Part shown: one piece after another, positions 2,817 to 21,348 of the stretch
Layout: the number at the start of each line of letters is the position of its first letter
Numbering within the stretch: the stretch's first letter is position 1
Virus genome (UHGV): UHGV-0273073
Strand: one strand, 5' to 3'
Source of the DNA: a virus
Length of the DNA: 26,336 nt
Notes under the pieces: model-generated
What the model was told of the DNA's origin: nothing
The model's input: the letters and a program-made list of their open reading frames with translations, nothing else
Databases searched by the model: none
Position numbers and translations under genes: made by a program

Positions 2817-2993
2817 ATGATGAATATTGAAAACTTAAAAACAAAAGCAGAAGCAGATATTTCTGAATATATAACAAAAAAAATTATTGAACTTAAGAAA
2901 AAGACCGGGAAAGAAGTTACCAGTATTCAGTTTACCGCACGGGAAAAAATGACGGGTCTTGAAAGCTATGATGTCAAGATTAATTTAATCTGA
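2817..2993 (+). CDS. GnsA/GnsB-family small protein
   Basis: 58-aa ORF absent from the supplied track (below size cut-off). MMNIENLKTKAEADISEYITKKIIELKKKTGKEVTSIQFTAREKMTGLESYDVKINLI matches the Gns family. GAGG Shine-Dalgarno at 2811..2814; the second ATG (2820) is the more likely start. Confidence 0.8.
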   Translation: MMNIENLKTKAEADISEYITKKIIELKKKTGKEVTSIQFTAREKMTGLESYDVKINLI

Positions 2994-3144
2994 TGTATTC
3001 AATAATAAAATTTATCCATAAACCTCGTTTTTACGGGGTTTTGTTATATTTGAATGGTTCCGAATATCTAAATCACAATTGTTGATGGTTTTTATTAAAC
3101 CAATGCAGTCCGGCTCAGGAGTGAGAGAAGCCGGACGTTATGGT

Positions 3145-3570
3145 TTAGCGTGGTAAGATCTGTGTAGTTTTCTGGATGCTTTCAGTAAATAGTAATGAAT
3201 TATCAAAGGTATAGTAATATCTTTTTTGTTCGTGGATATTTGTAACCCACCGAAAAACTCCTGCTTTAGCAAGGTTTCTTCTGTATTCCTGAAATGTGAT
3301 CTCTCTGGATTTCAGCTTATTAGAGGTCGTTTCTATAAGATGCCTATCCTTTGAAAATTTGACAGACACAATGTTTTTTAGGCCCTTTAATAACACTGTA
3401 TTATCATTTTTTAATACAATATGAACATTCTCTGTGGCTAAATAGTAAATGTAATGTGAGACATTGTGACGTTTTAGCTCAGAATAAAACCATTGATAGT
3501 TTAAATCGTTTCGAACTTTATCAAATATTTGTTTAAAAATGACTACCTGATCCATAGATAAACCTTCCAT
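3145..3570 (-). CDS. DUF1398-like (YdfO/YbcV-like) prophage protein; likely start at second Met (3555)
   Basis: ORF track 3145..3570 (141 aa); family assignment from recollection and synteny with Qin-type prophages. Confidence 0.6.
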
Positions 3571-3612
3571 GTGATATGAGGGGGCGTAGTCTGCACGATT
3601 ATCTAAATTGCT

Positions 3613-3846
3613 TCAATCTGGTCTGACCTGTTTTCTGAGCAATTCAGTAATGTCACTCTTTTCTTTGTTTGCTTCAGAAGAAACTCTTTTTTCTGAGCAC
3701 AGTCTCCGGCGGCAGGCTTCAATGACCCAGGCTGAGAAATTCCCGGACCCTTTTTGCTCAAGAGCGATGTTAATTTGTTCAATCATTTGGTTAGGAAAGC
3801 GGATGTTGCGGGTTGTTGTTCTGCGGGTTCTGTTCTTCGTTGACAT
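3613..3846 (-). CDS. Small ribbon-helix-helix-like DNA-binding protein
   Basis: 77 aa; NIRFPNQMIEQINIALEQKGSGNFSAWVIEACRRRL has a beta-strand/helix/helix layout typical of CopG/Arc-type RHH; basic N-terminus. Confidence 0.5.
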   Translation of the reverse strand: MSTKNRTRRTTTRNIRFPNQMIEQINIALEQKGSGNFSAWVIEACRRRLCSEKRVSSEANKEKSDITELLRKQVRPD

Positions 3847-4015
3847 GAGGTTGCCCCGTATTCAGTGTCGCTGATTTGTATTGTCTGAAGTTGTTTTTAC
3901 GTTAAGTTGATGCAGATCAATTAATACGATACCTGCGTCATAATTGATTATTTGACGTGGTTTGATGGCCTCCACGCACGTTGTGATATGTAGATGATAA
4001 TCATTATCACTTTAC

Positions 4016-4223
4016 GGGTCCTTTCCGGTGATCCGACAGGTTACGGGGCGGCGACCTCGCGGGTTTTCGCTATTTATGAAAATTTTCCGGTTTAAGGCGT
4101 TTCCGTTCTTCTTCGTCATAACTTAATGTTTTTATTTAAAATACCCTCTGAAAAGAAAGGAAACGACAGGTGCTGAAAGCGAGCTTTTTGGCCTCTGTCG
4201 TTTCCTTTCTCTGTTTTTGTCCG
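4016..4223 (+). promoter_or_regulatory. cos: Prophage cos site (cosQ-cosN-cosB); cosN 12-nt cohesive-end sequence GGGCGGCGACCT at 4046..4057
   Basis: Sequence matches the lambda genome termini as I recall them (…GGTGATCCGACAGGTTACG | GGGCGGCGACCTCGCGGGTTTTCGCTATTTATGAAAATTTTCCGG…); lies immediately upstream of Nu1. Confidence 0.9.
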
Positions 4224-4234
4224 TGGAATGAGCA

Positions 4235-4754
4235 ATGGAAGTCAACAAAAAGCAGCTGGCTGACATTTTCGGTGCGAGTATCCGTACCATTCAGAACTGG
4301 CAGGAACAGGGAATGCCCGTTCTGCGAGGCGGTGGCAAGGGTAATGAGGTGCTTTATGACTCTGCCGCCGTCATAAAATGGTATGCCGAAAGGGATGCTG
4401 AAATTGAGAACGAAAAGCTGCGCCGGGAGGTTGAAGAACTGCGGCTGGCCAGCGAGACAGATCTCCAGCCAGGGACTATTGAGTATGAACGCCATCGACT
4501 TACGCGTGCGCAGGCCGACGCACAGGAGCTGAAAAATGCCAGAGACTCCGCTGAAGTGGTGGAAACCGCATTCTGTACTTTCGTGCTGTCGCGGATCGCA
4601 GGTGAAATTGCCAGTATTCTCGACGGGATCCCCCTGTCGGTGCAGCGGCGTTTTCCGGAACTGGAAAACCGACATGTTGATTTCCTGAAACGGGATATCA
4701 TCAAAGCCATGAACAAAGCAGCCGCGCTGGATGAACTGATACCGGGGTTGCTGA

Positions 4755-4780
<26 letters not shown>
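4235..4780 (+). CDS. Nu1: Terminase small subunit
   Basis: 181 aa; MEVNKKQLADIFGASIRTIQNWQEQGMPVLRGGGKGNEVLYDSAAVIKWY… essentially as lambda Nu1; winged-HTH N-terminus. Confidence 0.97.
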
Positions 4781-8461
<3,681 letters not shown>

Positions 8462-8481
<20 letters not shown>

Positions 8482-9793
8482 TCTCCCGCATATTGCCAGC
8501 ATGGCCTTTAATGAGCCGCTGATGCTTGAACCCGCCTATGCGCGGGTTTTCTTTTGTGCGCTTGCAGGCCAGCTTGGGATCAGCCGCCTGACGGATGCGG
8601 TGTCCGGCGACAGCCTGACTGCCCAGGAGGCACTCGCGACGCTGGCATTATCCGGTGATGATGACGGACCACGACAGGCCCGCAGTTATCAGGTCATGAA
8701 CGGCATCGCCGTGCTGCCGGTGTCCGGCACGCTGGTCAGCCGGACGCGGGCGCTGCAGCCGTACTCGGGGATGACCGGTTACAACGGCATTATCGCCCGT
8801 CTGCAACAGGCTGCCAGCGACCCGATGGTGGACGGCATTCTGCTCGATATGGACACGCCAGGCGGAATGGTGGCGGGGGCATTTGACTGCGCTGACATCA
8901 TCGCCCGTGTGCGTGACATAAAACCGGTATGGGCGCTGGCCAACGACATGAACTGCAGTGCAGGTCAGCTGCTTGCCAGTGCCGCCTCCCGGCGTCTGGT
9001 CACGCAGACCGCCCGGACAGGCTCCATCGGCGTCATGATGGCTCACAGTAATTACGGTGCTGCCCTGGAGAAACAGGGTGTGGAAATCACGCTGATTTAC
9101 AGCGGCAGCCATAAGGTGGATGGCAATCCCTACAGCCATCTTCCGGATGACGTCCGGGAGACACTGCAGTCCCGGATGGACGCAACCCGCCAGATGTTTG
9201 CGCAGAAGGTGTCGGCATATACCGGCCTGTCTGTGCAGGCTGTGCTGGATACCGAGGCTGCAGTGTACAGCGGTCAGGAGGCCATTGATGCCGGACTGGC
9301 TGATGAACTTGTTAACAGCACCGATGCGATCACCGTCATGCGTGATGCACTGGATGCGCGTAAATCCCGTCTCTCAGGAGGGCGAATGACCAAAGAGACT
9401 CAATCAACAACTGTTTCAGCCACTGCTTCGCAGGCTGACGTTACTGACGTGGTGCCAGCGACGGAGGGCGAAAACGCCAGCGCGGCGCAGCCGGACGTGA
9501 ACGCGCAGATCACCGCAGCGGTTGCGGCAGAAAACAGCCGCATTATGGGGATCCTCAACTGTGAGGAGGCTCACGGACGCGAAGAACAGGCGCGCGTTCT
9601 GGCAGAAACCCCCGGAATGACCGTGGAAACGGCCCGCCGCATTCTGGCTGCAGCACCACAGAGTGCACAGGCGCGCAGTGACACTGCGCTGGATCGTCTG
9701 ATGCAGGGTACACCGGCACCGCTGGCTGCAGGTAACCTGGCATCTGATACCAATAAAGAATTACTTAATACACCTGAAGCTTTACCGGTATAA
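8462..9793 (+). CDS. C: Prohead protease / scaffold fusion (ClpP/SppA-like protease domain)
   Basis: Starts VTAELRNLPHIASMAFNEPLMLEPAYARVFF (GTG 8462) inside the longer track ORF 8315..9793; overlaps the B 3' end; lambda gpC-like. Confidence 0.95.
9386..9793 (+). CDS. Nu3: Scaffolding protein Nu3, in-frame internal start within C
   Basis: ATG at 9386 in the C frame, preceded by CAGGAGGG; MTKETQSTTVSATASQ… as lambda Nu3. Confidence 0.85.
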   Translation: MTKETQSTTVSATASQADVTDVVPATEGENASAAQPDVNAQITAAVAAENSRIMGILNCEEAHGREEQARVLAETPGMTVETARRILAAAPQSAQARSDTALDRLMQGTPAPLAAGNLASDTNKELLNTPEALPV

Positions 9794-9802
9794 GAGGCAG
9801 TT

Positions 9803-10135
9803 ATGGCGACAAAAGAAGAGTTTAACCATTACCAGCCGCTGGGTAACAGTGATCCGGCTCATACAGCAATTGCGCCTGGCGGATTGAGTGCGAAAACGCC
9901 TGCAATGACCCCGCTGATGCTGGATGGCACTACCCGTAAGCTGGTTGTGTGGGATGGCACCACCGACGGTGCAGCCGTTGGCATTCTGGCGGTTGCTGCT
10001 GACCAGACCAGCACCACACTGACGTTCTACAAGTCCGGCTCGTTTCGTTATGAGGATGTGCTCTGGCCGGAGGCTGCCAGCGACGAGACTAAAAAACGGA
10101 CCGCGTTTGCCGGAACGGCAATCAGCATCGTTTAA
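9803..10135 (+). CDS. D: Head decoration protein
   Basis: 110 aa; …[75 protein letters not shown], lambda gpD-like. Confidence 0.97.
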
Positions 10136-10155
10136 TCTTCCCCTTCATCAACAAA

Positions 10156-10177
10156 GGCCGCCTGTGCGGCTTTTTTT
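10156..10177 (+). terminator. Stem-loop plus T-run in the D-E intergenic region (partial terminator/attenuator)
   Basis: GCCGC (10157..10161) - CTGT - GCGGC (10166..10170) followed by seven T (10171..10177). Confidence 0.5.
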
Positions 10178-10190
10178 ATGGAAATAATTT

Positions 10191-10466
10191 ATGTCTGTAT
10201 ATACAACTGCAGAATTACTGGCATCGACCCAGCATCACTTTAAGTTCGATCCGCTGTTTCTGCGCCTGTTTTTCCGTGAAACCTATCCTTTCACCACGGA
10301 AAAAGTCTATCTCTCACAAATTCCGGGACTGGTAAACATGGCGCTGTACGTTTCGCCGATTGTTTCCGGTGAGGTTATCCGATCCCGTGGCGGCTCCACC
10401 TCTGAATTTACGCCGGGTTATGTCAAACCCAAGCACTTAGCATGGCTTTCTGAGGCTTTCGTGTAG
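10191..10466 (+). pseudogene. E: Major capsid protein E, 5' fragment: codons 1-82 (10191..10436) fused to 9 island-encoded codons then stop
   Basis: MSVYTTAELLASTQHHFKFDPLFLRLFFRETYPFTTEKVYLSQIPGLVNMALYVSPIVSGEVIRSRGGSTSEFTPGYVKPKH is lambda gpE N-terminus; homology ends exactly after His82, followed by LAWLSEAFV*. Confidence 0.92.
10426..10435. repeat. Left copy of 10-bp direct repeat AACCCAAGCA (putative attL core)
   Basis: Identical 10-mer at 20558..20567; both copies sit at the breakpoints of E homology. Confidence 0.8.
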
Positions 10467-10563
10467 TTGCTGGTTTTTACACTTAATCTTTTGATAATAA
10501 AGAATAAGTTTATCTGGCGCTTTCACTGGATTTTCCTCGTTATCTGTGTGTTGCAATCATCTC

Positions 10564-10583
10564 TGTATTGCAGCTTGTATTGC
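10564..10583. repeat. Arm-type direct repeats TGTATTGCA / TGTATTGC at 12-bp phasing (left arm, between attL core and int)
   Basis: The same 9-mer occurs three times at 12-bp phasing on the right arm (20449..20481). Confidence 0.65.
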
Positions 10584-10598
10584 TTTTTGGGGCTAAAA

Positions 10599-11834
10599 AT
10601 GGCTGGCGAGAACAAACTGAGCGACAAAGCACTTAAAGGATATCTGGGGAAACCCAGAGAAAAGCAGATCACCATTGCTGATGGAAAGGGGCTTTCTATT
10701 CGTGTGAGTACCAAGGGGGCTGTGAGCTTTGTTTTCTTCTACAGGTTAGCAGGTGGCCGGGCTGCTCCGGTCTGGCTAACGTTGGGTAAATATCCTGATA
10801 TGTCACTCAAACAGGCAAGAGAAAAGCGCGACGAGTGCCGTGGTTGGTTGGCTGACAAACGTGATCCGCGTATCCAGATTAAGATTCAGGCTGAAGAACG
10901 CTTAAAGCCGGTCACAGTGGAGGATGCACTAAATTACTGGTATGAAAATTACTGTAAGGTGCGTCGTAAAACTCATGCTGTAACGCTTGGCAGATTTCGA
11001 AAGCATATCTTTCCCTATATCGGTCATTTGCCCGTAAATGACACTCACCTATATGAATGGCTGGACTGTTTTGACCGAATTAAACGTAATGCACCAGTTA
11101 TGGCGGCGTATGTTTTTTCTGACACTAAATTAGCTCTTCGTTTTTGTCGGGTACGCCAGTACGCGACGTGTGATGCTTTAAAGGATTTGCGCATGAGTGA
11201 TGTGGGGCAGATTGCAGGTAAGCGGGATCGGGTTCTGGATGAAGCCGAACTGGGCCAGCTCTGGAAGGCAATTTTTGTCGAGCCTGATTTAAAACTAATG
11301 TCTGAATACACGCGAAAAATGTTTGTGCTTTGTACAGTATTTGGATGTCGAATGAGTGAAGCCCGATTATCAGAATGGAGCGAATGGGATCTAGAAAGTT
11401 GGGTTTGGACTGTACCAAAAGAACACTCAAAAACCGGTGTTGAAATCGTCAGACCAGTACCTGAAATTCTACGACAGTGGGTAACGGATGTTCACGAAGA
11501 GACAAAACATACTGGTTATGTGCTGGGAAGTCTGCGAATTAGAGAAAGCGTAAGCAAGATTGGGGGGAAAATCGGTAAACGTTTGGGCCATGAAAAACAA
11601 TGGTCACTACACGACCTTAGAAGAACGCTATCTACTCATCTAAGTGATCTCGGTGTTGAATTTTATGTAGTAGAACAACTGTTAGGCCATGCGCTACCTG
11701 GCGTGGCAGGTGTTTACAACCGGAGTAAGTTTATGGCTAAAAAACTGGATGCTCTGGAACTCTGGACTACATATCTCAATAGCATCGCAGGTGCTGATTC
11801 AAAAGTGACAATCCTCAAACAAAAGGCTGGTTAA
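10599..11834 (+). CDS. int: Tyrosine site-specific integrase, P4 family (N-terminal arm-binding DUF4102-like domain)
   Basis: ATG at 10599 (MAGENKLSDKALKGYLGKP…); catalytic-region motifs HDLRRT and GVYNRSK (Tyr); the track's TTG-initiated extension 10467..10598 covers the arm repeats and is unlikely to be coding. Confidence 0.92.
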   Translation: MAGENKLSDKALKGYLGKPREKQITIADGKGLSIRVSTKGAVSFVFFYRLAGGRAAPVWLTLGKYPDMSLKQAREKRDECRGWLADKRDPRIQIKIQAEERLKPVTVEDALNYWYENYCKVRRKTHAVTLGRFRKHIFPYIGHLPVNDTHLYEWLDCFDRIKRNAPVMAAYVFSDTKLALRFCRVRQYATCDALKDLRMSDVGQIAGKRDRVLDEAELGQLWKAIFVEPDLKLMSEYTRKMFVLCTVFGCRMSEARLSEWSEWDLESWVWTVPKEHSKTGVEIVRPVPEILRQWVTDVHEETKHTGYVLGSLRIRESVSKIGGKIGKRLGHEKQWSLHDLRRTLSTHLSDLGVEFYVVEQLLGHALPGVAGVYNRSKFMAKKLDALELWTTYLNSIAGADSKVTILKQKAG

Positions 11835-11835
11835 C

Positions 11836-12066
11836 ATGAAAAAAATGGCAATTGTTGATAAAAAGGGTCTGGAGTACATTCCTAACATTGACCGAATGAT
11901 CCGTGAGAAAGAATGTCGGGAGCTAACCACTCTTGCGAACAGCACACGCTGGAAGCTGGAGAAGGAAGGAAAATTTCCTAAGCGGATCAAGATTGGTTCC
12001 ACTGCTGTTGCATATCGTCTTTCAGAAGTGCAGGCATGGATTCGAGGTGAGTGGGAAACAACTTAA
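11836..12066 (+). CDS. AlpA-family HTH regulator / excisionase-like protein
   Basis: 76 aa; core RELTTLANSTRWKLEKEGKFPKRIKIGSTAVAYRLSEVQAWI fits the AlpA/Xis pattern; directly downstream of int as in P4-like elements and PICIs. Confidence 0.75.
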   Translation: MKKMAIVDKKGLEYIPNIDRMIREKECRELTTLANSTRWKLEKEGKFPKRIKIGSTAVAYRLSEVQAWIRGEWETT

Positions 12067-12082
12067 CTATTAGGTGGGCATT

Positions 12083-12904
12083 GTGGCTATATTTCATTAT
12101 ACAGATCTTTTTGGTTTGAAAGGTATATTAGACTCTAATTCTTTATGGGCTACAAACATATATTTCTTAAATGATAAAGAGGAGTCTAACCATGGATGTG
12201 AATGCTTTCGAAATACAATTAAAATAGTTGATGACAATATCATTCCAAAAGATAAGAAAACTATTTTGCTCAAGTCTCTTGACATGTATGAGAAAGGGAG
12301 GTTACAAAAAGAAAAAGGGATTGATAAACATGTTTATAGCATCTCTTTTTGTAAGGAAAACGATAAGTTAAGTCAGTGGAGAGGTTACGGAAATAAACAG
12401 GGTGTTTGCATTGAGTTTGATGCGGATGAACTTGTGAGCTTTTCTCAAAATATTTATTTAAATTGTGTTGCACATGATGTTATATATTCAAATAATAACG
12501 ATGTTACTAAGATGAGTAAGGAGTTGGGGGCGTTTTTTTCTTGTAATGGTATTAATATTAAAGAAAAGAATGATCATTTTGTAACAATGGCCTCTACGTA
12601 TCAATTTATATCTAAATACATCCCATTTTTTAAACATCCTAGTTTTATCGAAGAAAATGAATTTAGATTGGTATTTACTCCGCGCATACTAATACCAGAT
12701 GTGCAATTCAGAATAAATAATAATGGTGTCATCCCTTATATCATCATTGGTAATAAAGATCATAGGAAGTTACCAATTAAAAGTATTACTATTGGCCCGA
12801 CAAACGATTATGATTTCATTGAGGCTGGTATAAAAATGTTCTTGGATTCAAAAGGATTTAGTTCAGTGGAAATTAAATCCTCATCAATTCCATTCAGGGG
12901 GTAA
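12083..12904 (+). CDS. Cargo protein of unknown function, AT-rich (possibly DUF2971-like)
   Basis: ORF track 12074..12904; GTG at 12083 preceded by AGGTGG; codon usage and AT content clearly differ from flanking genes; motifs IYFLNDKEE and YSISFCKENDKLSQWRGYGNKQGVCIEF. Confidence 0.7.
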   Translation: MAIFHYTDLFGLKGILDSNSLWATNIYFLNDKEESNHGCECFRNTIKIVDDNIIPKDKKTILLKSLDMYEKGRLQKEKGIDKHVYSISFCKENDKLSQWRGYGNKQGVCIEFDADELVSFSQNIYLNCVAHDVIYSNNNDVTKMSKELGAFFSCNGINIKEKNDHFVTMASTYQFISKYIPFFKHPSFIEENEFRLVFTPRILIPDVQFRINNNGVIPYIIIGNKDHRKLPIKSITIGPTNDYDFIEAGIKMFLDSKGFSSVEIKSSSIPFRG

Positions 12905-12949
12905 GGATTAACACTTTTAATCTATGATGTTATAAAAATGGTGGATAAA

Positions 12950-12969
12950 GGCGACCAGAATTGGTCGCC
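12950..12969. terminator. Hairpin between convergent cargo genes (possible bidirectional terminator)
   Basis: GGCGACCA-GAAT-TGGTCGCC, 8-bp perfect stem. Confidence 0.45.
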
Positions 12970-13035
12970 AATGTGAGTATATAGTTAGCCTTAATCAGAA
13001 TACGAGGTTGTCGACTGATAGGCAATGTGAACAGT

Positions 13036-13392
13036 TCAATATTTAGGTGGTTCAACAAGAGCGTTTATCATTGCTCTCAAATTATCGCGAACACTTATCC
13101 AAGTCTGTTCTGCTCGTTCTAACTCATCAGTGTACAACTTTAATGTTTTATCTATGCCATATGTGGCTATTAAATTTATAGCTTCTTGTAACTTTTCGGG
13201 ATTATTCCTTCTTGGGGGAGTGAATATACCACGGATTTTTCCGGTAATTAAAGCTTTACGGTGTCTACATAGAATACCTTTACTTCCTGCTGGACAATTG
13301 CAAGTCATGATTAGCGAGCCAGAATCGTTTGATACAGTGACTATGTATACATCCAAACTACTGCTACTTGTTGCGAAGAATTCGTATTTCAT
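13036..13392 (-). CDS. Small SWIM-type zinc-finger protein (CxC-x8-CxH)
   Basis: 118 aa; TCNCPAGSKGILCRHRKAL; strong AAGGAG Shine-Dalgarno 7 nt upstream of the ATG on the minus strand. Confidence 0.7.
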   Translation of the reverse strand: MKYEFFATSSSSLDVYIVTVSNDSGSLIMTCNCPAGSKGILCRHRKALITGKIRGIFTPPRRNNPEKLQEAINLIATYGIDKTLKLYTDELERAEQTWISVRDNLRAMINALVEPPKY

Positions 13393-14559: not shown

Positions 14560-14859
14560 ATGGGAATGAAAAATACTGGTGTTAATGCCAGCGGCCCCGC
14601 TCGACCTGAATTTATGAACGGCGATATTTACCGCGATAAATACGGCGGCACGGTAACGATTAAAGGCGTGGCAGAACGGCGCATCACTTACCGCCGTGAG
14701 GGGTATAGCTATGACTGCGTGATGCCTGTTTATCAGTTCCGGCGTGATTTTTCCCTGGTATATGCCGCACCCCGCAGTAAGCCCACCAGCAGGGAAAAAG
14801 CGCGGGGAAACATCCAGAAAATGAAAAGCATGATTAACGCATTCAGGGGCAAAAAATGA
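14560..14859 (+). CDS. Hypothetical protein upstream of primase (operon member)
   Basis: 99 aa; stop overlaps the primase ATG (ATGA at 14856). Confidence 0.6.
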   Translation: MGMKNTGVNASGPARPEFMNGDIYRDKYGGTVTIKGVAERRITYRREGYSYDCVMPVYQFRRDFSLVYAAPRSKPTSREKARGNIQKMKSMINAFRGKK

Positions 14860-16607
14860 AACTGGCACCGAACTTAAAAAAACAGCCACGCGACAGACTG
14901 ACAGAGGTAATCATCTTTGCAGGTAGTGATGCGTGGAGCCATGCGAAAGAGTGGCAGGAATGGGCGGGTAAACATATTGCCGCCGACGATGTGCCGCCTG
15001 TCGTGCTGGCTGATGAGCAACTGAAAAACATCACCGATTACCGGATCATTGATGAAGATCGTCAGTGTGTGCGTGTTTACCGCGCAGGACATATCACAGA
15101 GCACAGCATGACGCAGATTGTTACGTTACTGGCTGTGGCTGGAGTGAAGACCGTACACGAATACGCGGGGATTACTGACACCAGCCCCGTGGATTTATCC
15201 GACCAGTTGCCGCGACTCAAAGAGGAATGCGAGCGTGGGGAAAGCCTGGTGCTTAATCTTCCGACGAAGCAAAAGGAGCAACTTTCACAGATGGCAGACA
15301 GTGAGCGGGCACAACTACTTGCCGATCGCTTTGATGGTGTTTGTGTTCATGCAGAAAGTGAAATCGTCCACGTATGGCGCGGCGGGGTATGGTGTCCGGT
15401 CAGCACAATGGAGCTGAGCCGCGAAATGGTGGCGATCTATTCAGAGCACAGGGCCACGTTCAGCAAACGCGTAATCAATAACGCCGTGGAAGCGTTAAAA
15501 GTTATTGCCGCCCCCATGGGGGAGCCGTCCGGTGATTTGCTACCGTTCACTAATGGTGTGCTTAATCTGAAAACGGGGGAATTTTCTCCGCACTCGCCGG
15601 AGCACTGGAGCACCACGCACAATGGTATTGAGTACACGCCACCAGTAGCAGGGGAAAACATCCGCGATAATGCGCCAAATTTCCATAAATGGCTTGAACA
15701 TGCTGCAGGAAAAGACCCGCGCAAGATGATGCGTATATGTGCCGCGTTATACATGATTATGGCGAACCGCTACGACTGGCAGATGTTCATTGAGGCCACC
15801 GGAGACGGGGGAAGCGGTAAGAGTACATTTACCCATATTGCCACCCTGCTTGCAGGCAAACAGAACACCGTAAGCGCAGAGATGACATCACTCGATGATG
15901 CAGGAGGGCGCGCGCAGGTTGTCGTGAGTCGTCTTATCGTCCTTGCCGATCAGCCGAAATATACGGGGGAAGGCACGGGCATCAAGAAAATCACGGGAGG
16001 CGATCCCGTTGAAATCAATCCGAAATATGAGAAGCGATTCACGACGATAATAAGGGCGGTGGTACTGGCAACCAATAACGACCCGATGATCTTTACCGAA
16101 CGGGCCGGAGGTGTGTCACGCCGTCGGGTGATTTTCCGGTTCGACAACATTGTAAGGGAGGACGAAAAAGACAAGGAATTACCGGAAAAGATAGCGGCAG
16201 AAATCCCCGTAATTATCCGCCGCTTGCTGGCTAACTTTGCTGACCCTGAAAAGGCAAGGGCTTTACTACTGGAACAGCGTGACGGTGATGAAGCTCTGGC
16301 AATAAAGCAGCAAACGGATCCAGTTGTTGAGCTTTGCGCGGCGCTTGAGTTTCTGGATGAAGCTCGTGGGCTAATGATGGGCGGTGGTGGTGACTCCGTG
16401 AAGTACACGACCAGAAACAGCCTTTACCGTGTCTATATGGCCTTCATGGCATACACAGGAAAGGGGAAATGTTTGAGCGTGAATGAGTTCGGAAAGGCTA
16501 TGAGGTCAGCGGCGAAAGTTTACGGATATGAATATATTACGCGAAAAGTTAAGGGAGTCACGCAGACCAACGCAACGACTACTGATGATTGCGATGCGTT
16601 TTTATAA
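14856..16607 (+). CDS. Replication primase/helicase (P4-alpha/PICI pri-rep-like, P-loop NTPase)
   Basis: 583 aa; Walker A GDGGSGKST; Walker B-like VLADQ; immediately followed by the iteron array. Confidence 0.85.
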   Translation: MKLAPNLKKQPRDRLTEVIIFAGSDAWSHAKEWQEWAGKHIAADDVPPVVLADEQLKNITDYRIIDEDRQCVRVYRAGHITEHSMTQIVTLLAVAGVKTVHEYAGITDTSPVDLSDQLPRLKEECERGESLVLNLPTKQKEQLSQMADSERAQLLADRFDGVCVHAESEIVHVWRGGVWCPVSTMELSREMVAIYSEHRATFSKRVINNAVEALKVIAAPMGEPSGDLLPFTNGVLNLKTGEFSPHSPEHWSTTHNGIEYTPPVAGENIRDNAPNFHKWLEHAAGKDPRKMMRICAALYMIMANRYDWQMFIEATGDGGSGKSTFTHIATLLAGKQNTVSAEMTSLDDAGGRAQVVVSRLIVLADQPKYTGEGTGIKKITGGDPVEINPKYEKRFTTIIRAVVLATNNDPMIFTERAGGVSRRRVIFRFDNIVREDEKDKELPEKIAAEIPVIIRRLLANFADPEKARALLLEQRDGDEALAIKQQTDPVVELCAALEFLDEARGLMMGGGGDSVKYTTRNSLYRVYMAFMAYTGKGKCLSVNEFGKAMRSAAKVYGYEYITRKVKGVTQTNATTTDDCDAFL

Positions 16608-16896: not shown

Positions 16897-17154
16897 ATGC
16901 ACACATCAGGAAAACTGAACAAACATATAAAGCCACATTACCGCGCCCTTGATATGGCTGAACACTGGCTAAGGGTGGCGATTAAGGCAATAGACCGCAA
17001 CGCCGGGGAAGGATACGCGAAAGCACATCCCGAACTGATAAGCGCATTCATGACAACGGCGGCTGCAAACTTTGCCACGCTGACCGAACGGGAGATTGCC
17101 GAAGCGGAGGAAGTGACAACCATCAATATTAAGTCCGGAGAGCAGGCAGCATGA
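16897..17154 (+). CDS. Hypothetical 85-aa protein
   Basis: Stop overlaps the ssb start. Confidence 0.5.
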   Translation: MHTSGKLNKHIKPHYRALDMAEHWLRVAIKAIDRNAGEGYAKAHPELISAFMTTAAANFATLTEREIAEAEEVTTINIKSGEQAA

Positions 17155-17600
17155 CGGCGCAAATAGCAGCTTACGGGCGGCTGGTGGACGCCCCGCAGAC
17201 AAAACAGACCAGCAAGGGCACCCCCATGACGCTGGCGCGTATGGCGGTATCACTGCCCTGCAGCCAGTCGGATGACGGTCAGGCGACGATGTGGTTATCT
17301 GTTCTGGCGTTTGGCAGACAAGCCGACGCGCTGGCAAAGCATCACAAAGGCGAACTCCTGAGCGTGGCGGGTAACATGCAGGTGAGTCAGTGGACTGGAC
17401 AGAACGGTGAAACGCGGCAGGGCTGGCAGGTTATCGCAGACAGCGTAATCAGTGCGCGAACGGTGCGACCGGGCGGCAAAAAAGGCCAACAGGGGCAGGC
17501 TACTGACGCACTGAACAGAGCAAAACAACAGGCAGATCAGCAAGGAAGCCATCCACCAGTGGGAGATAATGAGCAATGGGGAGATGATATTCCGTTTTAA
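17151..17600 (+). CDS. ssb: Single-stranded DNA-binding protein
   Basis: 149 aa; OB-fold core and acidic C-terminal tail ending DDIPF, as in E. coli SSB. Confidence 0.9.
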   Translation: MTAQIAAYGRLVDAPQTKQTSKGTPMTLARMAVSLPCSQSDDGQATMWLSVLAFGRQADALAKHHKGELLSVAGNMQVSQWTGQNGETRQGWQVIADSVISARTVRPGGKKGQQGQATDALNRAKQQADQQGSHPPVGDNEQWGDDIPF

Positions 17601-17618: not shown

Positions 17619-17643
17619 GCCGGAAAAAAATAAATTTTCCGGC
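17619..17643 (+). other. Hairpin (9-bp stem GCCGGAAAA / TTTTCCGGC) between ssb and the capsid-homolog gene
   Basis: Perfect inverted repeat with 7-nt loop AAATAAA; no downstream T-run. Confidence 0.4.
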
Positions 17644-17817: not shown

Positions 17818-18858
17818 ATGGTTGATTTATATTCGCCTACCCAGCTTGTACAGGTGGTTAATGCTGTAGATGTACAAAAACAACTAAATGCGTTGTTTAC
17901 CAGTTTGTTTTTTACTCGCTCGGTAATGTTTGAATCGCGCGATATTATTCTTGATACAATCGACGATCCAAATATCCCAATTGCAGCGTTTTGTTCTCCT
18001 ATGGTGGGTAGTAAAGTTTCACGTGACGAAGGGTACGAATCAAAAACAATTCGTCCAGGCTATATGAAGCCGAAAAGCAGCATTGATCCAAATAAGTTAG
18101 CTGTGCGCCCTGCTGGTGTATCACCTGAGCAATACAATGCTTTTGGAGCGCGTAATATTAAAGTTAAACAGGCGATTGTAAATCAGGCTAAAGCTATTCG
18201 TGCACGTATTGAATGGCTTGCCGTTCAGGCAATCACAACGGGGAAAAATATCATTGAGGGCGATGGTATTGAACGTTATGAGCTGGACTGGAATATTAAA
18301 CCACAAAATATCATCACTCAGTCTGGCGGTGCTGAGTGGTCAGGTAAGGATAAAGAAACTTTTGATCCAAATGATGATATTGAGAGCTACGCAGAATTTA
18401 GTGAGGGCGTCACTAATATCATCATTATGGGCGGTAATGTATGGAAGAAATACCGTTCATTCAGAGCGATAAAAGAGGCTCTGGATACCCGTCGTGGTTC
18501 TAATTCCGAACTGGAAACGGCCCTTAAAGACCTTGGTGATTCGGTGAGTTTTAAAGGGTATATGGGCGATGTTGCGATTGTTGTATACAGCGGGCGTTAT
18601 ACCGACGAGGACGGAACTGAAAAACATTTCCTTGATCCTGATTTGATGGTGCTTGGCAATACGGCTCTTCAGGGGATTGTCGCCTATGGCGGTATTCAGG
18701 ATCCGGAGCTAATCCGAATGGGGCTGACTAAAGCCGAACTTGCACCGAAAAACTATATTGTGCCTGGTGATCCGGCTATTGAATATGTGCAGACACATTC
18801 AGCACCACAGCCAATACCGGCCCGCATCAATCGTTTTGTTACCGTTCGCATTGGCTAA
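17818..18858 (+). CDS. Island-encoded major capsid protein homolog (divergent gpE-like)
   Basis: 346 aa from ATG 17818 (AGAGG 6 nt upstream), inside track ORF 17644..18858. Blocks ITQSGGAEWSGKDKETFDPNDDIESYA and DTRRGSNSELETALKDLGDSVSFKGYMGDVAIVVYSG align with ITQSGGTEWSKRDKSTYDPTDDIEAYA and DTRRGSHSELETAVKDLGKAVSYKGMYGDVAIVVYSG of the resident E (20569..21348). Confidence 0.9.
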   Translation: MVDLYSPTQLVQVVNAVDVQKQLNALFTSLFFTRSVMFESRDIILDTIDDPNIPIAAFCSPMVGSKVSRDEGYESKTIRPGYMKPKSSIDPNKLAVRPAGVSPEQYNAFGARNIKVKQAIVNQAKAIRARIEWLAVQAITTGKNIIEGDGIERYELDWNIKPQNIITQSGGAEWSGKDKETFDPNDDIESYAEFSEGVTNIIIMGGNVWKKYRSFRAIKEALDTRRGSNSELETALKDLGDSVSFKGYMGDVAIVVYSGRYTDEDGTEKHFLDPDLMVLGNTALQGIVAYGGIQDPELIRMGLTKAELAPKNYIVPGDPAIEYVQTHSAPQPIPARINRFVTVRIG

Positions 18859-18867
18859 GGGGGAGCA

Positions 18868-19209
18868 ATGGCTACTCATTACACTGAACTCATGGCTGGC
18901 ACTGAAGCACTGGTGACTACGCTGGGGATATTTTCAGCTAATAAAGGGGTAATTCCTGCATTTACGCCACTGATGCAGGAAGATGCAACAGGTGCACTGG
19001 TGGTATGGGATGGTTCGAGCGTAGGTAAAGCGGTTTATGTTTCCGCTGTACAAATCGACACCGCGAAAAAAACACAGGCTCAGGTCTATAAGACAGGTGT
19101 CTTAAATGTTGATGCTCTGAACTGGCCTGAGTCTGTAAAAGAACTGTCAGTAAAGATTGCAGCGTTTGTTGGCTCAGGTATTTCTGTTCAGCCGCTGGCT
19201 CGTGTGTAA
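18868..19209 (+). CDS. Island-encoded head decoration protein homolog (divergent gpD-like)
   Basis: 113 aa; TPLMQEDATGALVVWDGSS…YKTGVLNVDALNWPES…AAFVGSGISV aligns with resident [20 protein letters not shown]…[16 protein letters not shown]…[11 protein letters not shown]. Confidence 0.8.
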   Translation: MATHYTELMAGTEALVTTLGIFSANKGVIPAFTPLMQEDATGALVVWDGSSVGKAVYVSAVQIDTAKKTQAQVYKTGVLNVDALNWPESVKELSVKIAAFVGSGISVQPLARV

Positions 19210-19220
19210 AGGGGGATACA

Positions 19221-19604
19221 ATGCAAAATGATTACAATGACCTTAAGCCAATTGCCGAAATGATGTACCCGAATCCAGCTGTAGAGGAATTAAAAGCTAT
19301 CGCTGACAAAATGTGTTTAAGCGAGCGCCTTGTTGATATGAATCAGGTGATGGAAATTACAACCCTGAGTCGGCGTACACTGCTAAACCTTGAGGCTAGT
19401 GGAGAGTTCCCGGAGCGTGTGCAGGTTACGGAAGGGCGTAAGGCCTGGTATTTAAGTGAAGTGATCGACTGGATAAATAATATTCCTCGCGCTTCTGAAT
19501 ATTGCCGCGTACCTGTCCCAAAAAAGCCAGATGCGGCGCTATGCCTCAAGATTGAGCGTGTACGCCGCAATGCACGGGATGGTCGCTATAAGCTGATTGG
19601 TTGA
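19221..19604 (+). CDS. HTH protein (AlpA/excisionase-like fold with N-terminal extension) adjacent to the cos-like site
   Basis: 127 aa; MNQVMEITTLSRRTLLNLEASGEFPERVQVTEGRKAWYLSEVIDWI. Confidence 0.6.
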   Translation: MQNDYNDLKPIAEMMYPNPAVEELKAIADKMCLSERLVDMNQVMEITTLSRRTLLNLEASGEFPERVQVTEGRKAWYLSEVIDWINNIPRASEYCRVPVPKKPDAALCLKIERVRRNARDGRYKLIG

Positions 19605-19629
19605 TGAAATTAGGGCCCGCTCTGGCTGG

Positions 19630-19838
19630 CGGGTCCTTTCCGGCGATCTGACAGGCTACGGGGCGTCAGGCGCGCGGATTTTCGCTATTTATGAAAATTT
19701 TCCGGTTTAAGGCGTTTCCGTTCTTCTTCGTCGTAACTTAATGTTTTTATTTAAAATACCCCCTGAAAAGAAAGGAAACGACAGGTGCTGAAAGCGAGCT
19801 TTTTGGCCTCTGTCGTTTCCTTTCTCGTTTTTTGTTCA
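19630..19838 (+). promoter_or_regulatory. Island cos-like packaging site: cosQ/cosB nearly identical to the prophage cos (4016..4223), divergent cosN-equivalent 12-mer GGGCGTCAGGCG at 19661..19672
   Basis: By-eye alignment: about 150 bp of the cosB arm differ by only a few substitutions; the cosN 12-mer differs at 5 of 12 positions; no terminase genes in the island. Confidence 0.85.
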
Positions 19839-20185
19839 ACAATTGCGCGGTAGCAACTCGCCTTTCTGCTGCTGGAACTTATCCGGCACGTTTCCAGTGA
19901 TATCTGTCAGACAGCAGGCAAACAGGAGACAACGCAGTCGGACAGCACGACCGCTGAAAATTACGCGCGTGTGGTGCTTGAGGTTATGCGCCGTGACGGT
20001 ATCGAGCTTAACGGCGTGGATATGTGCAACATACGCACCAGAGTTCTGGAGTTGTTGCCATATCGTCGCCGTTCCATGTAGCGAAGGGAGAGCGCGAAAA
20101 ACACTTACCAGTGGAAGAAGCAGGAGCGGTTACGGCGGTAACTTGCTGATATTCCCGATAACGCAAAATTGCGTTGGCTGGCAGA

Positions 20186-20404
20186 GTGCAAATTTGCACG
20201 ATGGTCTAACCCATTGATTCTTTCGAAAATCACCATTGGGGGATAACGGGGGAATAAGCCTAACCCATTGATTCTTCCACAATCCTCAATTTGAGGAGAG
20301 CGGAATTATTACATGGCTGGATCAGGACTCCTTGAATTCAAGGAGTTCTCCTGTGTGAAAATGAAATTACCCAAGTTGGTGGGTGAGTTGCAGATCTGCA
20401 ACTC
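20186..20404. promoter_or_regulatory. Cluster of four palindromes in the island right arm: 20186..20199, 20284..20296, 20328..20345, 20385..20404
   Basis: GTGCAAATTTGCAC (14 bp, perfect), CCTCAATTTGAGG (imperfect), CTCCTTGAATTCAAGGAG (18 bp, perfect), GAGTTGCAGATCTGCAACTC (20 bp, perfect). Confidence 0.6.
20206..20276. repeat. Two copies of the 17-mer CTAACCCATTGATTCTT (20206..20222, 20260..20276), resembling the att core (AACCCA…)
   Basis: Exact direct repeat; shares AACCCA with the core AACCCAAGCA. Confidence 0.6.
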
Positions 20405-20448
20405 GGCTATGAAACTTAATAATCGAACAGCATGTAAATTCATTTCTG

Positions 20449-20481
20449 TGTATTGCAGCATGTATTGCAGCATGTATTGCA
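20449..20481. repeat. Three phased copies of TGTATTGCA (12-bp period), right-arm arm-type sites
   Basis: 20449, 20461, 20473; the same motif occurs twice on the left arm (10564..10583). Confidence 0.65.
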
Positions 20482-20557
20482 ACATAGTCATTCTGGTAGA
20501 GATTATGCTCTATTTTTCCTCTTATATCATTCACATACTTACGTCATTGACTCATGT

Positions 20558-20567
20558 AACCCAAGCA
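20558..20567. repeat. Right copy of 10-bp direct repeat AACCCAAGCA (putative attR core)
   Basis: Identical to 10426..10435; E homology resumes 1 nt after it. Confidence 0.8.
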
Positions 20568-20568
20568 T

Positions 20569-21348
20569 GAGGTGAATCCGCAGATGACCCTGCGTCGCCT
20601 GCCGGATGAAGATCCGCAGAACCTGGCTGACCCGGCTTACCGTCGTCGCCGTATTATTCGGCAGAATATGCTGGATGAAAATCTGGCGATTGCCCAGGTC
20701 GAAGAGATGCAGGCAGTTTCTGCCGTGCTTAAGGGCAAATACACCATGACCGGTGAAGCCTTCGATCCGGTTGAGGTGGATATGGGCCGCAGTGCGGCGA
20801 ATAACATCACGCAGTCCGGCGGCACAGAGTGGAGCAAGCGTGACAAGTCCACGTATGACCCGACCGACGATATCGAAGCCTACGCGCTGAACGCCAGCGG
20901 TGTGGTGAATATCATCGTGTTTGATCCGAAAGGCTGGGCGCTGTTCCGTTCCTTCAAGGCCGTCAAGGAGAAGCTGGATACCCGTCGCGGCTCTCATTCC
21001 GAGCTGGAGACAGCGGTAAAAGACCTGGGCAAAGCGGTGTCTTATAAGGGAATGTATGGCGATGTGGCCATCGTCGTGTATTCCGGACAGTACGTGGAAA
21101 ACGGCGTCAAAAAGAACTTCCTGCCGGACAACACGATGGTGCTGGGGAACACTCAGGCACGCGGTCTGCGCACCTATGGTTGCATTCAGGATGCGGACGC
21201 ACAGCGCGAAGGCATTAACGCCTCTGCCCGTTACCCGAAAAACTGGGTGACCACCGGCGACCCGGCGCGTGAGTTCACCATGATTCAGTCAGCACCGCTG
21301 ATGCTGCTGGCTGACCCTGATGAGTTCGTGTCCGTTCAACTGGCGTAA
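20569..21348 (+). pseudogene. E: Major capsid protein E, 3' portion (codons 83-341), separated from its 5' part by the island
   Basis: Frame reads TAA-P-K-H-EVNPQMTLRRLPDEDPQNL… through the normal C-terminus …DPDEFVSVQLA; 82 + 259 residues = 341 as in lambda gpE; an in-frame TAA (20557..20559) lies just upstream. Confidence 0.92.

Follow-up and report, generated by a model that had tools for sequence, protein, structure and literature searches.

The E'-D' capsid and cement gene pair of a helper-embedded PICI: a satellite lineage of lambda-type shell proteins and its possible role

Introduction

The satellite island described here belongs to a published group of elements. In Escherichia coli NRG857c, the element 11capE (Eco567.11capE; Tommasini, Mageeney & Williams 2023, PMC10111431) occupies the same site, E:Phage_cap_E_80, and uses the same 10-bp block. 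Its excision after induction has been demonstrated, yet virions of the composite were not detectable (PMC10111431). EcCICFT073 (Fillol-Salom et al. 2018/2019) shares the architecture of our island and carries an E'-D' pair (c1499/c1500) in the same place and order, but it lies outside any prophage, whereas the present island is prophage-embedded. In EcCICFT073, deletion of c1499 or c1500 left transfer and interference unchanged, and the authors reported no phenotype; the island with c1499::cat was still transferred at 1e5-1e6, and all DNA packaged with lambda was phage-sized (PMC6092414). Among the cloned genes of that region, only rppA reduced lambda plaquing, which was fully restored by deletion of rppA (PMC6739421). 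Our search of later papers for a role of the PICI capsid/decoration pair returned nothing past these negative results of 2018.

Other satellites resemble the island in part. SaPIbov5 is cos-packaged and encodes a homologue of the major capsid protein of its helper, Ccm (PMC8569155). Penton occupancy and shell shrinkage have been demonstrated for Ccm, whereas no size change was seen with the E. coli PICI homologue; moreover, Ccm has no partner cement protein, whereas E' is paired with D'. The cf-PICIs (e.g., EcCIEDL933) likewise combine a PICI backbone (int, alpA, rep) with a capsid gene of their own of the HK97 fold. However, they also encode a portal, a protease, head-tail connectors, HNH and terminase subunits, all of which are absent here, and the island falls outside this class. 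P4 is similar in being a satellite with a helper-type cos, but it depends on helper capsid protein only, and its Psu and Sid proteins have no sequence relationship with gpD and gpE. Psu is a satellite-supplied protein that decorates and stabilises the capsid holding satellite DNA.

The puzzle is that hundreds of enterobacterial satellites keep capsid and cement genes under strong selection although their deletion has no effect in the laboratory model. We do not add a new kind of element, as both the two genes and their setting have been published before. The initial annotation of this DNA overstated their novelty, since Tommasini et al. 2023 (PMC10111431) had already reported identical proteins and made the same comparison of att sequences. 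What we add is that the pair forms a satellite-only lineage with a constant E'-D' order, strong purifying selection and joint divergence, and that it is present regardless of whether the helper gene E is interrupted. Together, these features rule out the most obvious explanations: that the pair was captured recently, that it is decaying, or that it merely backs up the split gene.

The island and its prophage setting

The window, that is, the whole stretch of 26,336 nucleotides that was analysed (UHGV virus genome UHGV-0273073), contains a lambdoid prophage with a satellite of 10,132 bp in codons 79-82 of gene E. The satellite lies in the same orientation as its host gene. The features of the setting are:

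9803-10135, plus strand: helper D, 110 aa, with which D' is compared
10191-10435, plus strand: helper E, 5' part, codons 1-82
10426-10435, plus strand: AACCCAAGCA, left copy (attL) of the 10-bp identity block, within codons 79-82 of helper E
10564-10583, plus strand: doubled TGTATTGC motif, 133/145 bp downstream of the attP centre
10599-11834, plus strand: satellite tyrosine integrase, 411 aa (Pfam Arm-DNA-bind_3 and Phage_integrase)
11836-12066, plus strand: alpA, excisionase/regulator (Pfam Phage_AlpA, 3e-15)
14856-16607, plus strand: primase/replicase (Pfam D5_N, DUF5906)
17151-17600, plus strand: SSB (Pfam SSB, 5e-15)
19221-19604, plus strand: second AlpA-like helix-turn-helix gene, 127 aa (Pfam Phage_AlpA, 7.6e-9; phrog_2790, 1.1e-49)
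20449-20480, plus strand: tripled TGTATTGC motif, 90-114 bp upstream of the attP centre
20558-20567, plus strand: AACCCAAGCA, right copy (attR) of the 10-bp identity block
20568-21348, plus strand: helper E, 3' part

A scan of the window found AACCCAAGCA at 10426 and 20558 only. This core is present at both ends of the island, and an uninterrupted 341-aa lambda-type E is regained when the two flanking parts are joined, as expected for the E:Phage_cap_E_80 site. Upstream copies of TGTATTGC lie at -114/-102/-90, the last one ending at -82, and downstream copies at +133/+145, with no further plus-strand copy anywhere in the window. The published spacing of this motif from the attP centre in helper-embedded PICIs is 132 +/- 2 downstream and 81 +/- 2 upstream (PMC10111431); hence, the motif is at least doubled at the fixed distances on both sides. 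By pairwise identity (99.5%) to the founding 11capE integrase, the integrase can be assigned to the helper-embedded PICI clade.

Identity to 11capE is 100% for E', D' and the AlpA-like protein and also, over 73 aa, for alpA. The flanking TGTATTGC motifs, the orientation and the variant cosN are also the same. The two islands differ in their mosaic middle, where the primases are only 48% identical, in their cargo (HEPN and DUF262 genes in 11capE, DUF2971 and SWIM genes here) and in the chromosomal locus of the helper. These data show that the element belongs to the published 11capE type of helper-embedded PICIs.

The island also has the architecture of Gram-negative PICIs of the EcCICFT073 type. 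Its left end holds int and alpA, its genes are co-oriented and include a primase/replicase, and its length of 10,132 bp is within the 10-20 kb of such elements. Its replication genes are 72-87% identical to those of EcCICFT073 (primase 80%), and c1499 and c1500 are 55% and 54% identical to E' and D', respectively. The allele type is different, as EcCICFT073 has a 351-aa capsid protein and a conserved 68-aa ORF ahead of it. In addition, EcCICFT073 has RppA and its own cosB, whereas our island has neither RppA nor TerS and carries a helper-like cosB. In the allele type found here, the AlpA-like gene after D' keeps the same position in L006, L014-L018 and L021-L023. No Rfam match to P4-type immunity RNAs (C4/isrK) or to other RNA families was obtained in the island; the sole Rfam match in the window is a cspA thermoregulator in the helper.

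E' and D' as lambda-type shell proteins

Two genes of the island are predicted to encode structural proteins:

17818-18858, plus strand: E', major capsid protein, 346 aa, of the lambda gpE/HK97-fold type (Pfam PF03864, structure match)
18868-19209, plus strand: D', head-decoration (cement) protein, 113 aa, of the gpD/SHP type (Pfam PF02924, structure match)

E' is preceded by an AAGAGGA ribosome-binding site 7 nt upstream of its start. Its residues 12-343 match Pfam Phage_cap_E (PF03864) with E=1.4e-41 (143.1 bits, cut-off 22.9), and the protein is 42% identical to the reconstituted helper E over 328 residues (E=9e-85). It also matches PDB 3BQW, a crystal structure of the c1499 protein rather than of an assembled capsid, at E=2.6e-121 and lambda gpE at 2.3e-76. 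In agreement with these matches, Foldseek aligned the AlphaFold model of E' (pLDDT 79.8) best with 3BQW, at TM 0.90, and with lambda gpE at TM 0.83-0.87. E' is full length and has all HK97-fold elements without large indels. Profile and predicted fold thus confirm E' as a putative major capsid protein of the gpE type.

D' matches Pfam HDPD (PF02924) with E=4.4e-15 (56.3 bits, cut-off 29.1), helper D with 41% identity over 78 residues (E=2e-17), phage 21 SHP at 6e-16 and lambda gpD at 1e-11. Its AlphaFold monomer model (pLDDT 82) superimposes on phage 21 SHP (1TD0) with TM 0.82-0.83 for the query and 0.90-0.91 for the target (rmsd 1.4-1.5 A), and on lambda gpD (1C5E) with TM 0.78/0.91. Hence, D' is likewise confirmed, by profile and modelled fold, as a predicted cement protein of the gpD/SHP type.

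Both proteins share Pfam families and folds with lambda gpE/gpD and phage 21 SHP and align over their full length without large indels, but identity is 38-45% for E and 30-39% for D, and the gene order is reversed. Compared with gpD and SHP, the N-terminus of D' is shorter and conserved in a different way, and a tail, SVQPL, has been added. Both this N-terminus and the C-terminal tail are conserved among D' proteins and missing from phage D. The parts of E' that have diverged furthest from E are the N-arm and the spine helix. These differences are consistent with a cement protein specific to the shell it belongs to. The most conserved E'/E block covers about residues 157-260 of E' and probably corresponds to the A-domain around the capsomer axis. 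A search for E' residues that discriminate the satellite clade yielded 10 positions only, scattered and without a clear surface signal.

The alignments of E' and D' with the resident E and D, as well as the order E'-D', opposite to the D-E of the helper, had been noted from the letters of this DNA, and they hold in profiles, predicted folds and coordinates. The accompanying view that both genes are too diverged for recent duplication is also borne out. Identity at third codon positions is about 30-50%, close to the random level, and exact nucleotide matches between E and E' do not exceed 14 nt, which excludes recent duplication or gene conversion between these two genes. Moreover, E' had correctly been described as free of the att core: its matching codons read ATGAAGCCGAAAAGCAGC (GYMKPKSS), whereas those of the helper read GTCAAACCCAAGCATGAG.

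A satellite-only lineage under purifying selection

Satellite E' proteins are 53-74% identical among themselves and 38-45% identical to phage E; the corresponding values for D' are 47-58% and 30-39%. In 50,697 phage records, the best phage match reached 42% for E' and 40% for D'. A phage source still visible among sequenced phages was therefore rejected, as 0 of the 437 matching phage records exceeded 42% identity. All contexts examined in which E' had at least 52% identity were int-alpA-primase islands with the order E'-D', and the first match at 42% identity or below was a true phage with the order C-D-E. The order E'-D' was found in all 12 island types examined, against D-E in the helper. 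In a neighbour-joining (NJ) tree, 44 of 45 satellite sequences fell into one clade; the exception, an E::E' hybrid, was the single sequence that had broken a first NJ bipartition test. As judged from these comparisons, the E'/D' lineage is shown to be confined to enterobacterial PICIs.

Both genes are under strong purifying selection, with dN/dS of 0.06-0.09 for E' and about 0.12 for D'. Pairwise distances of E' and D' are correlated (r=0.92, Mantel p about 2e-4), although such a correlation could result from tight linkage alone. Other modules are mosaic, and the primase can be 48% identical where E' is 100% identical. Strong purifying selection together with joint divergence fits real shell proteins. 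The pair remains intact across genera, and 395 of 5,426 complete E. coli genomes carry the allele described here; in strain STEC711, the E'-D' DNA is 100% identical to ours. Chromosomally integrated PICIs have the pair as well (EcCICFT073 near phoQ; fis in Serratia and Lelliottia; cspD-clpS), and so does an Edwardsiella island embedded in a portal gene, where the helper D-E genes are intact.

Possible roles of the pair

The reading that we favour, tentatively and at somewhat short of an even chance, is that E' and D' form an accessory module that makes helper-sized, lambda-type shells on the portal, scaffold and protease of the helper. E' and D' would be made late. We found no plus-strand terminator between SSB and E' (a hairpin at 17619-17643 has no plus-strand T-run), and consensus scans for a promoter or terminator of the pair's own gave no more sites than shuffled sequence; co-transcription with the upstream satellite genes and read-through from the helper late operon are thus probable. 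E' would then assemble on the helper portal, scaffold and protease, whose compatibility is assumed, into shells of pure E' or of mixed E/E', which D', probably as a trimer, would cement after expansion. In this way, the satellite may gain a supply of shell protein independent of helper E, a gene that stays split by the satellite until excision. The module would be accessory, as helper E alone is enough for transfer in the model PICI. Counting against this reading as well are the missing phenotype of c1499 or c1500 deletions, the absence of an effect on lambda of cloned genes from that region other than rppA, and the failure to detect 11capE virions.

A different proposal, made in the initial annotation, is that the pair builds or forces a smaller, satellite-sized shell that excludes helper genomes, either of pure E' or with E' at the pentons as in Ccm, while the helper portal, scaffold, terminase and tail are used. 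Ccm in pentamers leading to T=4 shells is a precedent (PMC8569155), and PmCI172 makes small heads and has a capsid homologue. The sizes would also be suitable, as one copy (10.1 kb) corresponds to 74% of T=3 capacity and two copies (20.3 kb) to 97% of T=4, and purifying selection indicates that the pair does something. However, DNA packaged by EcCICFT073 with lambda was phage-sized, deletion of its capsid or decoration gene neither relieved interference nor lowered transfer, cloned genes of that region other than rppA did not inhibit lambda, and a comparison of E' with gpE reveals no indels or additional domains hinting at an altered geometry. A smaller shell thus appears unsupported and is unlikely. 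Particles made from helper E alone, the outcome named at the outset as contrary to a shell built by the island, are what the transfer of c1499 deletion mutants points to in this relative. Because E' is only 55% identical to c1499, inference from EcCICFT073 is uncertain in either direction. It is similarly improbable that the old satellite-only pair assembles satellite-specific shells, possibly T=4 with two 10.1-kb copies, on the helper portal, scaffold/protease, terminase and tail. If it did, the island would represent a "shell-only" class between classical PICIs and cf-PICIs, and laboratory assays with lambda/phi80 would have failed to reveal the activity, since this would depend on the native helper or on the embedded configuration.

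The location of the island inside E, together with an E homologue that has no att core, raises the idea that E' (with D') replaces the split gene in cis, so that heads could form before or without excision of the satellite. As a general explanation this substitution fails, since the pair is also found where helper E is intact: the chromosomal PICIs and the Edwardsiella island listed above carry it. Besides, a stand-in for E would need no D' of its own, as helper D is intact here. We regard replacement as quite unlikely. Interference, in which E' and/or D' compete with or poison helper shell assembly and so cut helper yield, has in its favour that capsid assembly of the helper is a common target of satellites and that mixed capsomers are conceivable if the conserved block at residues 157-260 is indeed the A-domain. 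On the other hand, rppA was the only cloned gene of the EcCICFT073 region that lowered lambda plaquing, recovery was complete after its deletion, and loss of c1499 or c1500 gave no relief, which makes interference by the pair an unlikely role. The lowest probability, in our judgement, goes to the absence of any virion role, with the pair being decaying captured cargo or serving a non-structural use, e.g., by deceiving or setting off sensors of the host or of rival phages. The lack of a phenotype in the model PICI is compatible with it, and helper late genes do get captured by the late zones of PICIs. Nevertheless, dN/dS of 0.06-0.12, conservation of the intact pair across genera, a satellite-only lineage so far from any phage copy that capture cannot be recent, and the frequency of the allele in E. 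coli genomes all argue against this. If the pair builds or alters shells with its native helper, it would mark a step between capsid-borrowing and capsid-making satellites.

The cos region and packaging

Packaging of the island would start from its own cos region, which lies downstream of the AlpA-like gene and provides the packaging signal or specificity factor (cos, terS or rpp) typical of PICIs:

4046-4057, plus strand: helper cosN GGGCGGCGACCT, upstream of Nu1 (4235-4780)
19630-19835, plus strand: satellite cos region, like the cos of lambda-like phages, with the variant cosN GGGCGTCAGGCG at 19661-19672 followed by a cosB-like stretch

The cosB-like stretch is about 95% identical to helper cosB (aligned with helper 4015-4221). 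If E' and D' act as an accessory module making helper-sized shells, DNA would enter these through the satellite cos, with its near-identical cosB that helper Nu1 could bind. The island would probably be packaged as multimers, four copies amounting to 40.5 kb and five copies to 50.7 kb. In lambda, gpD is required only when the head is filled beyond about 80% of genome length. From this biology, the retention of a dedicated cement protein suggests that shells containing E' hold DNA at full density.

Searches with Pfam and PHROG profiles found no portal, protease, head-tail adaptor/connector, terminase or tail genes among the ORFs of the island, E' and D' being the only structural genes. The initial claim that such genes are missing therefore stands for this island, but not as a general trait, because close relatives have, directly after the AlpA-like gene, a Nu1-like small-terminase gene that is absent from this copy, where a helper-like cosB is found instead. 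In 19605-20557, tblastn detected no remnant of terS or rpp; it did reveal a truncated homologue of a small 93-aa ORF that follows TerS in the relatives.

Identity of the element

The window corresponds to the late region of a lambdoid prophage that harbours a satellite. This satellite belongs to the helper-embedded PICI (HE-PICI) type reported by Tommasini, Mageeney and Williams (2023; PMC10111431). It breaks the helper major capsid gene E at 10435/10436, the gene continuing from 20568, and the 10-bp direct repeat AACCCAAGCA flanks the insert at 10426 and 20558. When the flanks are joined, an unbroken 341-aa lambda-type E is obtained. The insert comprises 10,132 bp, and every gene lies on the plus strand save one SWIM-domain gene. 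It codes for an integrase, AlpA, a DUF2971 protein, small ORFs (one Icd-like), a DUF4222 protein, a D5_N/DUF5906 primase, SSB, E', D' and a second AlpA-like protein. Among the island ORFs, none was found that would code for a portal, a scaffold/protease, the large terminase, head completion or a tail.

Capsid and small-terminase genes in the window
4235-4780: helper Nu1, followed by A, W, portal gene B and protease gene C
9803-10135: helper D, after protease gene C
17818-18858, plus strand: satellite E', 346 aa, good ribosome-binding site; Pfam Phage_cap_E, 1.4e-41
18868-19209, plus strand: satellite D', 113 aa; Pfam HDPD, 4.4e-15

The HE-PICI-specific motif TGTATTGC is present in two copies near attL (10564-10583) and three near attR (20449-20480), 12 bp apart. 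Their spacing from the attP centre is as published, and the plus strand of the window has no other copy. The third copy near attR departs from the doubled motif expected. The gene-free right end of the island also holds a 17-bp direct repeat, CTAACCCATTGATTCTT, at 20206-20222 and 20260-20276, 54 bp apart.

The founding element of the group, Eco567.11capE (11capE) of E. coli NRG857c, is inserted in an icd prophage, at a 10-bp identity block within its capsid gene, and "bears its own capsid gene", one from the same family (PMC10111431). Figure 1 of that study sets the att region against its island homologue, with differences said to prevent self-integration, and 201 elements were counted at this site. 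The window integrase is 99.5% identical to that of 11capE, alpA is 100% identical over 73 aa, and E', D' and the downstream AlpA-like protein are 100% identical. Hence, the pair is already known, down to identical proteins. The primases are just 48% identical, so the window element is a mosaic 11capE variant with the same capsid module. At least 80% of the island is present at ~98% identity in 26 complete E. coli genomes, and its E'-D' allele in 395 of 5,426, where the usual annotations are major capsid protein and head decoration protein. The element shows all the testable features that define Gram-negative PICIs and the HE-PICI E-site group. It falls outside the cf-PICI definition, as it has no portal, protease, connectors or terminase, and it probably works like EcCICFT073, the model Gram-negative PICI, and 11capE.

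E' and D' are full-length shell and cement proteins

E' aligns over nearly its full length with the reconstituted helper E (42% identity, E=9e-85), and D' is 41% identical to helper D. Sequence searches matched E' to PDB 3BQW (E=2.6e-121) and lambda gpE (2.3e-76), and D' to phage 21 SHP (6e-16) and lambda gpD (1e-11). The AlphaFold models (pLDDT 79.8 for E', 82.0 for D') superpose on 3BQW (TM 0.90) and gpE (TM 0.83-0.87), and on SHP (rmsd 1.4-1.5 A) and gpD, respectively. Alignment and structure prediction thus both agree with the E-like and D-like assignment of the initial annotation, whose descriptive statements were all borne out. E and E' share ~30-50% of third-codon positions and no exact nucleotide match longer than 14 nt, so they are not recent duplicates, in agreement with the initial annotation. 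The att core is indeed missing from E', which reads ATGAAGCCGAAAAGC at the position of helper GTCAAACCCAAGCAT.

The N-arm and spine helix are the parts of E' furthest from E (31% identity between clades), and the block of residues 157-260 is 57-77% identical. Members of the D' family share an N-terminus, PYxELxAGTE..V.TL, and an added SVQPL tail, both lacking in phage D. A search for clade-discriminating residues gave no clear signal.

A satellite-only lineage under selection

Among satellites, E' identity is 53-74%, against 38-45% to phage E; for D', the values are 47-58% and 30-39% to phage D. Database matches to E' leave a gap between 51% and 42% identity, the first match below it being a true phage (Nu1-A-W-B-C-D-E), and the best matches among 50,697 phage records reach 42% for E' and 40% for D'. 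In a neighbor-joining tree, 44 of 45 satellite sequences fall in one clade. Judged by these comparisons, the pair is a satellite-only lineage. Wherever an E' of this lineage was examined in its context, it lay in an int-alpA-primase island, with the order E'-D' throughout, opposite to the helper D-E as first noted. These contexts included islands embedded in E, one of the same type that no prophage surrounds (L014), a cspD-clpS island, islands of the EcCICFT073 type near phoQ, further chromosomal islands of E. coli and Salmonella, and islands at fis in Serratia and Lelliottia. A further one, from Edwardsiella, is embedded in a portal gene, and its helper D-E is intact.

In unsaturated comparisons, dN/dS is 0.06-0.09 for E' and ~0.12 for D', indicating strong purifying selection on both. 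Pairwise distances of E' and D' correlate across 12 islands (r=0.92, Mantel p ~2e-4) and the remainder of the island is mosaic, a pattern indicating that the two proteins diverge together. Altogether, these results show that both proteins are full-length, intact and under selection, E' as a shell protein and D' as a cement protein.

The first tree test was disturbed by one E::E' hybrid, on a 4,432-bp metagenome scaffold (L019 2801-3829; order B-C-D-hybrid-D'-AlpA-like). It joins lambda-type E residues 1-~225 to E' ~226-342, with the crossover inside the conserved LDTRRGSNSELETA block. An assembly artefact does not readily explain the hybrid, because the longest exact E/E' match is 14-17 nt; the gene may be a natural recombinant. 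In a Lelliottia fis PICI (L012 10001-12752), E'-D' precedes an S49 protease/scaffold gene (50-57% identity to phage gpC), and a head-closure-type gene adjoins alpA, which brings the head genes of this satellite to three or four. A 68-90-aa ORF (GGVSVYISPDIV..AL...GLDPL), whose stop overlaps the E' start, is conserved in PICIs with 348-351-aa E' alleles, including EcCICFT073 (L020 5463-5669; L003 9795-10001; also L008, L010, L011 and L012); it is absent upstream of the window E'. The L014 island (GCA_052627445.1, ~2940-12777), whose E' is 85% identical, is flanked by ynfA and rspA; no prophage genes are called nearby, and the island may be a leftover after helper loss or an off-target integration. 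Two database proteins, P0005 (463 aa, E' fused to D' with the stop codon read as Leu) and P0147 (194 aa, Nu1 and HDPD domains combined), probably reflect mutation, deletion or sequencing error in islands of this kind.

Packaging signals

Downstream of the AlpA-like gene, 19630-19835 matches lambda-like phage cos and helper 4015-4221 at ~95%, taking in the entire cosB-like part and ending just short of Nu1. At that place, L002 has an intact Nu1-like small-terminase gene, with 38% identity to helper Nu1, and a cosB of its own; L001 has a pseudogene. No such gene is present at the corresponding place in the window (19605-20557, compared with L002 16612-18391 and L001 17170-19116), nor was a terS or rpp remnant found, or an RppA homologue in the island. 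The statement that the satellite lacks terminase therefore holds for this island, as a deletion state of this copy. Helper Nu1 presumably binds the borrowed cosB directly. Four or five island copies amount to 40.5 or 50.7 kb, both inside the acceptance range of the lambda head. These sizes fit the multimer packaging reported for EcCICFT073.

The 93-aa ORF following TerS in relatives has a homologue at 19869-20138, shortened by an in-frame TAG. The satellite cosN overhang GGGCGTCAGGCG (19661-19672) differs at 6 of 12 bases from the helper canonical GGGCGGCGACCT (4046-4057), with conserved flanks (ACG and CGCGG), so a satellite cohesive end would not anneal to a helper one. The GGGCGTCAGGCG variant is common to the window, 11capE and three other islands, two further variants exist, and EcCICFT073 and some relatives keep the canonical site (sites compared: L023 18089, L001 17227, L014 11803, L021 11845, L015 11800, L011 11490).

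Possible roles of the capsid pair

The EcCICFT073 counterparts of E' and D' are c1499, a capsid protein gene, and c1500, a head decoration protein gene, which match E'-D' in position and order. PDB 3BQW is the c1499 protein: its fragment is identical to the CFT073 gene product, and the entry title names E. coli CFT073. The replication genes of the two islands are 72-87% identical; E' and D' are 55% and 54% identical to the EcCICFT073 pair. Deletion of c1499 or c1500 left lambda interference and transfer unchanged, and an island with c1499 replaced by cat was transferred at 1e5 with the resident helper and 1e6 with phi80 (PMC6092414). The module was thus dispensable with lambda, phi80 and the CFT073 helper; packaged DNA was all phage-sized, and small capsids were not seen (PMC6092414). 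A capsid gene occurs in 21 of the 29 Gram-negative PICIs used as references, and transfer does not require it (PMC10111431). In the later literature, we found no paper giving the PICI capsid/decoration pair a function.

The likeliest role is that E' joins or forms lambda-type shells on the helper portal and scaffold, with D' cementing them. It would be a shell-protein supply independent of helper E, which in the embedded configuration cannot be made until the satellite excises. The helper late operon lies upstream of E' and D' and has the same orientation; between SSB and E', no terminator was found on the plus strand, and promoter and terminator scans yielded nothing for the island. Lambda requires gpD only for nearly full heads. 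Since a matched cement has been kept, E'-containing shells would hold DNA at full density, which argues against a mere decoy or poison. We tentatively favor helper-sized or mixed E'-containing shells, cemented by D' and completed with helper parts, at somewhat under an even chance.

The initial annotation had proposed a smaller, satellite-sized shell. The phage-sized DNA, the lack of small capsids and the neutral deletions in EcCICFT073 make this unlikely, one of the less likely readings still open, and place helper-sized or mixed shells well above it. The nearest mechanistic precedent with a known role, Ccm of SaPIbov5, forms pentons and shrinks the shell (PMC8569155), which is not seen for the E. 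coli pair. It had also been suggested that E' substitutes for the interrupted E. As a general explanation this fails on distribution, as in the Edwardsiella island, and D' is kept although helper D is intact in the window; we consider it improbable. Interference with the helper is as doubtful as a small shell, weakened by the finding that c1503 (rppA) was the sole lambda inhibitor among cloned genes after the origin and that its deletion fully restored plaquing (PMC6739421). Decay or a non-virion role, contradicted by dN/dS of 0.06-0.12, seems least probable, and these last three readings all rank below helper-sized or mixed shells. What remains of interest is the role of this capsid pair, which is widespread and strongly conserved in satellites.

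Accessory regions

An Rfam scan of the island returned nothing. The helper prophage has an AT-rich accessory region, in which a cspA thermoregulator RNA (RF01766, 110 bits; 1788-2173) sits 5' of a cold-shock-type gene. The variable zones of the islands hold differing likely defence cargo: DUF2971 and SWIM genes in the window (12074-13392), TIR and abortive-infection genes in L021 (4772-5647 and 13222-13983), HEPN and DUF262 genes in 11capE (L023 18536-20252), and Abi_C in L014 (13180-13941).
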